Source: Dictyostelium discoideum (lineage: Eukaryota). From it: a DNA stretch of 64,000 nucleotides. The notes below the pieces were generated by a model. The model saw nothing but the letters and a program-made list of their open reading frames with translations. It ran no database searches and was not told the origin of the DNA. The stretch lies in the NCBI GenBank assembly GCA_000004695.1, contig CM000152.2, positions 5,984,001-6,048,000 of the forward strand, in the 5' to 3' direction. A program made the position numbers and the translations under genes. Below are positions 8,504 to 8,892 of this stretch, one piece after another. Position 1 is the first letter of the stretch; the number at the start of each line of letters is the position of its first letter.

Positions 8504-8718
8504 ATTTGAAAAATAAATAAATAAAAAAAGTTTTGGTTTTATATTAAAAAAAAAAAAAAAAAAAAACATTATTTATTTTATTTATCAAATATATAACTGA
8601 GACAAGAAGTGACAATATTTGCAGAGTATTATAATAAATATACAAGAATGTACAAGAGCTTTTTAAAAGTAATGAAAAAAAGAGCAGAGAGAATAAACAG
8701 AAGCGGAAAAAAAGAAGT

Positions 8719-8892
8719 ATGAATTTAATAGATTTAATATTAATGGCAATATACGTAATAGGAATATCCGGTTTAATTTTTAATAAAAATAATATTATTA
8801 ATATATTAATAATATCAGAATTAAACTTAAGAACATTAGGGATGTTATTTGTGTTATCTTTTATATATATATATATATATATTTATTATTAA
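8719..8892 (+). pseudogene. Truncated ND4L-like ORF (NADH dehydrogenase subunit 4L), 57 codons. Candidate nuclear copy of mitochondrial DNA, or a small hydrophobic ORF.
   Basis: MNLIDLILMAIYVIGISGLIFNKNNIINILIISELNLRTLGMLFVLSF fits the ND4L pattern (G..G....N.I..L...EL.L). It sits in a locally GC-richer block (8570..8880) that ends in an (AT)n run. It is only about 60% of normal ND4L length. Confidence 0.4.

Follow-up and report, generated by a model that had tools for sequence, protein, structure and literature searches.

A 259-bp fragment of mitochondrial DNA (mtDNA) resides in chromosome 3 of Dictyostelium discoideum, in the spacer between the ribosomal protein gene rps11 (uS17) and a NUDIX hydrolase gene, and constitutes a dead nuclear copy of mtDNA (NUMT) that is restricted to the laboratory lineage, a reading whose probability is here put at about 95%. 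The insert starts 94 nt past the rps11 stop codon and ends 189 nt ahead of the NUDIX start, within a stretch of 64,000 nt that was analysed at its full length (the window) and to whose numbering all positions refer (Table 1). It is a young, lineage-specific NUMT and, as such, the product of an ordinary and known kind of event.

The identity of the upstream neighbour as rps11 derives from the Pfam families PF16205 (Ribosomal_S17_N) and PF00366 (Ribosomal_S17), both found on orthologous gene models, and its stop codon is followed by three overlapping AATAAA motifs at 8512..8525. The single-exon ORF 5441..6577 (-), near which the insert is located, is identical to XP_640148.1 / DDB_G0282599 of AX4.

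Table 1. Features of the insert and of its immediate surroundings in the window.
Feature	Position	Strand	Remarks
rps11 (uS17), end of last exon	8273..8503	+	stop TAA at 8501..8503; upstream neighbour, outside the insert
Left junction, 9 nt 'atatataac'	8589..8597	.	in neither the mtDNA at this place nor the empty alleles (L007-L010); filler or diverged flank
NUMT, 259-bp colinear ungapped copy of mtDNA	8598..8856	+	delimited by blastn and GC contrast
3' end of mitochondrial rps2, last 40 codons and TGA	8600..8722	+	translated as RQEVTIFAEYYNKYTRMYKSFLKVMKKRAERINRSGKKEV up to the stop; one residue off the mitochondrial version
nad4L, codons 1-46 of 98	8719..8856	+	compared with NP_050108.1 and eight other dictyostelid nad4L proteins
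Chimeric 57-codon ORF, 46 mitochondrial and 11 nuclear-flank codons (SFIYIYIYIYY)	8719..8892	+	stop TAA at 8890..8892
Right junction 'tta', 3-nt microhomology	8854..8856	.	common to the end of the mitochondrial fragment and the empty site (…aatTTAtctttt…)
(AT)10 microsatellite	8863..8882	.	nuclear flank; (AT)4 or shorter in empty alleles
T14 run	8893..8906	+	conserved in empty alleles
NUDIX hydrolase gene, start	9046..9048		ATG; downstream neighbour

Mitochondrial origin and limits of the insert

The place had been flagged in the first-pass annotation as a candidate mitochondrial-DNA insertion, with a BLASTN comparison against the mitochondrial nad4L region as the proposed check. That comparison returned a highly significant match, in which the insert aligns to laboratory-type D. 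discoideum mtDNA at 256 of 259 positions (98.8%) with 0 gaps and E = 6e-128, thus establishing its mitochondrial origin along with its boundaries. The homology includes a portion that had been overlooked, since the insert holds, upstream of the nad4L ATG, the last 121 nt of rps2. A second ORF at 8609..8722 ends within the ATG of the ND4L-like ORF, so that at 8719..8722 an ATGA makes the rps2 TGA overlap the nad4L ATG exactly as in mtDNA. In the mitochondrial contigs, the gene upstream of nad4L carries PF00318 (Ribosomal_S2), with its stop overlapping the nad4L ATG, and a Pfam scan of the rps2-tail ORF of the insert gave no match. That the DNA match runs across the rps2/nad4L boundary spoke for a copy of the mtDNA itself, as opposed to a resemblance at the protein level.

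Gene order on the metagenomic contigs (rpl6 … nad11-nad5-rps4-rps2-nad4L-nad4/nad2) is of the dictyostelid mitochondrial type, and the order nad11-nad5-rps4-rps2-nad4L on the D. discoideum mitochondrial contigs is also that of the dia3 cluster as published (PMC4030964). The insert shares with this cluster the rps2/nad4L junction and its stop/start overlap, but it copies 259 bp only, and starvation-induced expression is a feature of the cluster.

Taken at the level of the peptide, the ND4L-like frame might be regarded as an AT-rich ORF that mimics the hydrophobic pattern of ND4L by chance, given that its Pfam match is by itself weak (E = 0.0043, below gathering) and that peptides rich in I, L, N, K and F readily arise from AT-rich DNA. 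Nucleotide identity of 98.8% over the whole 259 bp, reaching 121 nt upstream of the ORF into rps2, leaves this explanation with no probability at all.

As mtDNA reference, Logan contigs encoding an nad4L identical to NP_050108.1 were used in place of NC_000895. Ten such contigs (L011-L020) present a single haplotype over the 259-bp region, and the runs SRR26869267, SRR28564542 and SRR24091722 contain the matching mitochondrial haplotype together with an AX4-identical nuclear SET-domain protein, so that this haplotype goes with a nuclear genome of the kind seen in the window. Identity of the insert falls to 249/259 (96.1%, blastn, ungapped) against the mitochondrial contig of a wild strain (L006, GCA_054859385.1), whose translated nad4L equals NP_050108.1, the D. 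discoideum reference mitochondrial protein, and to just 78-83% at the DNA level, in matches that also span the gene boundary, against other dictyostelid mtDNAs from metagenomes. The best match being laboratory-type D. discoideum mtDNA, the source must be the organism's own mitochondrial lineage. The mtDNA of a foreign species was also considered as a donor and ruled out by this same difference between 256/259 and 78-83%.

The insert also stands out by composition, with 22.4% GC vs 7.4% in the left flank (8504..8597) and 12.1% in the right one (8857..9046), within a window that is extremely AT-rich overall (21.9% GC). A block of locally higher GC had been reported at 8570..8880; the block is real, but its limits were wrong and are those of the insert. 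No second mtDNA-derived segment was detected in the window by blastn against ~24 kb of D. discoideum mtDNA.

The chimeric 57-codon reading frame

The ND4L-like ORF exists as first described, with the 57 residues as quoted and its ATG at 8719, 215 nt downstream of the rps11 stop codon. Its residues 1-46 are identical to mitochondrial nad4L (NuoK, PF00420, NP_050108.1) at 44 of 46 positions, including the conserved NKNNIINILIISELNL stretch, and it matches Pfam Oxidored_q2 (PF00420) over profile positions 2-43 of 95 (E = 0.0043, 17.2 bits). This score lies under the gathering threshold of 26.1 because the profile is covered only in part, and the ORF thus does not qualify as a full-domain nad4L. 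Unlike the mitochondrial protein, the nuclear copy is devoid of the C-terminal 52 residues, has two invariant residues mutated, and is intergenic. The proposal that nad4L is cut short by an (AT)n run does not hold: homology ends with codon 46 at 8856, the (AT)10 run belongs to the nuclear flank, and what truncates nad4L is the end of the captured fragment. The ORF is therefore an accident, in which the mitochondrial frame continues into AT-rich nuclear flank.

A search of a large protein collection with the ORF retrieved two clusters of 98-aa nad4L proteins of metagenomic (Logan) origin at 69-71% identity, while the exact 57-aa protein is absent from this collection of 15 billion proteins. An old insert, as these protein identities and the 78-83% DNA identity to metagenomic nad4L would suggest, was considered and overturned by the 98.8% match to D. 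discoideum. In several new Dictyostelium assemblies, mitochondrial nad4L lies within fused 'hypothetical protein' models of 229-512 aa (e.g. rps2+nad4L), and D. discoideum nad4L clusters under a 360-aa fused gene model as representative. These fused models are the reason why the D. discoideum nad4L was missed by the first homology search.

Empty orthologous sites and reality of the insert

The orthologous region was obtained, via the neighbouring SET-domain gene, from four other assemblies, two of wild D. discoideum (GCA_054859385.1 and GCA_054859355.1) and two of D. cf. discoideum (GCA_054859235.1 and GCA_054859205.1). In all four the rps11-NUDIX spacer measures 235-280 nt, as compared with 542 nt in the window, and alignment reveals a clean empty site in each of them (4/4). 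An empty orthologous site in the relatives indicates insertion and not deletion, and the insert is thereby confined to the lineage of the window.

Given that mtDNA is high-copy in Dictyostelium libraries and that the segment is bounded by low-complexity sequence where assemblers can mis-join (A21 on the left, (AT)10 and T14 on the right), abundant mitochondrial reads might have been joined by mistake into the nuclear scaffold. Three observations speak against such an artefact. (i) Over 9.1 kb, 2 mismatches and 8 indels separate the window from the chromosome-level assembly GCA_054883475.1 (CM142509.1), which must therefore have been assembled independently, from a very close strain; nevertheless, the 259-bp insert, its two junctions and the (AT)10 run are the same in both, letter for letter. 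(ii) The insert carries three substitutions found in none of the mitochondrial contigs examined. (iii) Continuous nuclear sequence is present on both sides, with a matching small target deletion. The identical insert in an independent assembly, together with the three private substitutions, excludes an assembly chimera, the probability of which is practically nil, and the insert is real.

Junctions and mechanism of insertion

At the left edge the mtDNA reads …gagggaa|TGAGAC… and the window …atataac|TGAGAC…, while at the right edge …GTGTTA|gcatcc… in the mtDNA becomes …GTGTTA|tctttt… in the window. The empty allele of the two wild D. discoideum assemblies is …tatcaa ttattataatttaatta tctttt(at)4ttatt… and the filled allele is …tatcaa atatataac [259 bp] tctttt(at)10ttatt…. 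About 17 nt of the target have thus been replaced by 9 nt of filler and the mitochondrial fragment, these sizes being approximate since the comparison strains are ~3% diverged and the AT-rich flanks are indel-prone. Neither a target-site duplication nor a poly(A) tail is present at the junctions. Expansion of the microsatellite coincides with the insertion, (AT)10 being also found in the assembly of the same lineage and (AT)4 or shorter in the four empty-site genomes.

Capture by end joining at double-strand breaks is an established route of NUMT formation. The pattern of the junctions here suggests that end-joining repair of a double-strand break is the most likely mechanism, during which an mtDNA fragment extending across the rps2/nad4L overlap would have been captured. 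A DNA intermediate is the default assumption; an RNA intermediate would be formally admissible as well, as the fragment crosses a gene boundary but the genes share one cluster.

Private substitutions and age of the insertion

Three changes are private to the NUMT and occur in no mitochondrial sequence examined, namely 8610 C>T, 8745 A>G and 8830 G>A. All of them are nonsynonymous, producing Ala>Val in rps2 (8610) and I9M and G38R in nad4L (8745 and 8830, respectively). Among nine mitochondrial nad4L proteins, taken from D. discoideum, D. citrinum, D. intermedium and environmental dictyostelids, neither I9 nor G38 varies. Changes at invariant residues appear to indicate neutral decay of the copy. 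The three are also all transitions, with the mitochondrial side unchanged since the transfer, numbers that are too small for significance.

Between the laboratory and wild-strain (L006) mitochondrial haplotypes, 7 sites differ in the 259 bp, and at 7/7 the NUMT agrees with the laboratory haplotype. In the nad4L part, where outgroups align gap-free, at least 2 of these 7 sites (8754 and 8796) are derived on the laboratory-type branch. Since the NUMT shares these laboratory-derived states, the transfer probably took place late on that branch. The insertion falls on the lineage leading toward the laboratory strains (NC4/AX type), later than the divergence of this lineage from the remaining D. discoideum and D. 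cf. discoideum isolates that have been sequenced.

Assemblies of the laboratory lineage differ by ~0.02%, so low a divergence that growth in culture could by no means account for three substitutions within 259 bp. The three amount to 1.2%, which is high for a young insert, the imbalance between NUMT and mitochondrial changes not being significant; the fragment may have carried mutations or damage before its capture, or its insertion may itself have been mutagenic. Unless one of these was the case, the insertion probably predates strain isolation and laboratory culture.

Relative to the window, nuclear sequence diverges by ~3% in both wild D. discoideum assemblies and by 4-6% in those of D. cf. 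discoideum, and mtDNA divergence between the laboratory type (L011) and L006 (GCA_054859385.1) is ~4.5%. Values of ~3% in nuclear DNA, with many indels, and of ~4.5% in mtDNA among assemblies labelled D. discoideum are high within one species.

Function and possible effects on neighbouring genes

Judged from its sequence and distribution, the insert is presumably a non-functional pseudogene fragment: an intact nad4L is still present in mtDNA, and the nuclear copy is without more than half of the gene. A functional nuclear gene or exon would take the form of an nad4L relocating to the nucleus, of a hydrophobic micropeptide, or of a segment within a spliced gene. The genetic code of D. discoideum mtDNA is the standard one, and with it the frame, open over 57 codons and placed just downstream of a highly expressed gene, would be readable in the nucleus. 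Nevertheless, (i) the copy comprises only 46 of the 98 codons and scores below the Pfam gathering threshold, (ii) mtDNA retains its own intact gene, (iii) no gene model exists at the locus in the annotated assembly and the exact protein occurs in no protein source searched, (iv) the insert is missing from conspecific and sister genomes, (v) the private changes strike invariant residues, and (vi) the included piece of rps2 would make no sense in a relocated nad4L. A functional gene is on these grounds very improbable. In particular, a longer spliced nuclear gene, which had been named as the finding that would speak against an insertion, receives no support, since the annotated assembly has no gene model between rps11 and the NUDIX gene and the ORF is absent from the four relatives.

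A neutral insert could still have a regulatory side effect, altering NUDIX expression or 3' end formation of rps11 in laboratory strains, a proposal that would supplement the NUMT reading, not compete with it. The insert lies ~70 nt past the AATAAA motifs of rps11 and ~7 nt upstream of the AT run and T14 (8863..8906), which, as Dictyostelium promoters generally go, would be a TATA/oligo-dT element and the probable core promoter for NUDIX. With the insertion the spacer has roughly doubled, from 235-280 to 542 nt, and the expansion from (AT)4 to (AT)10 adjoins this presumed element. On the other hand, core promoters in Dictyostelium are short, and the putative promoter element next to the NUDIX gene has been left intact. 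A side effect is unlikely. Less likely again is the combined reading in which the insert would be among a very small number of demonstrably recent, presence/absence-polymorphic NUMTs of Dictyostelium, a sign of ongoing mitochondrion-to-nucleus transfer in a genome from which recent insertions are reportedly missing, and would at the same time measurably alter neighbour expression in all NC4-derived strains relative to wild ones.

Comparison with surveyed NUMTs and significance

NUMTs are ubiquitous. For D. discoideum, a BLAST survey of 2010 (Hazkani-Covo et al., PMC2820518) counted 2 hits totalling 0.175 kb, and another of 2017, also by BLAST (Hazkani-Covo and Martin, PMC5570036), 147 hits corresponding to 122-132 insertions, recent insertions being hardly seen in Dictyostelium in the latter. 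The total of the former (2 hits, 175 bp) is smaller than the 259-bp fragment alone, possibly due to hard low-complexity masking that split or hid the match. As with the surveyed NUMTs, the present locus consists of a short, colinear, presumably non-functional piece of mtDNA in intergenic nuclear DNA; its junctions suggest a small target deletion, filler and microhomology, of the kind to be expected if the fragment was captured in end-joining repair. Set against the near absence of recent insertions in the 2017 survey (PMC5570036), it is 98.8% identical to its source and lineage-specific, and thus stands at the young extreme; the survey lists may or may not include it. A literature search retrieved no individual description of this insert. 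Human NUMTs are reportedly polymorphic, and the presence of this insert likewise varies between strains.

With this locus there is at least one young NUMT on record for a genome that had yielded almost none to the surveys, and its junctions look typical of break repair, here in extremely AT-rich DNA. From a practical point of view, the insert is a clean presence/absence marker by which the laboratory (NC4/AX) lineage can be told apart from isolates of wild D. discoideum. It is also a mapping hazard, in that short reads from the 259-bp segment can be assigned to the wrong genome, nuclear or mitochondrial, and the NUMT bases at 8610, 8745 and 8830 could pass for heteroplasmic variants of rps2 or nad4L. 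The understanding of NUMTs, of complex I and of gene transfer is unchanged by it.

Other features of the window

Across the whole window (1..64000) neither tRNA genes (ARAGORN) nor Rfam families at the gathering threshold were found. A Ras-like ORF (9980..10429) and a leucine-rich-repeat (LRR) ORF (10523..11716), both (-), are also present; in most related assemblies they make up one LRR+Ras gene model of 551-552 aa, which is split into two genes in one assembly (L007). Five stretches (~3205..3340, 13220..13400, 33576..33660, 36316..36426 and 54202..54314) show a mutual similarity of 88-90% with three-base offsets, and are trinucleotide-type repeats, typical of both coding and intergenic DNA of Dictyostelium.
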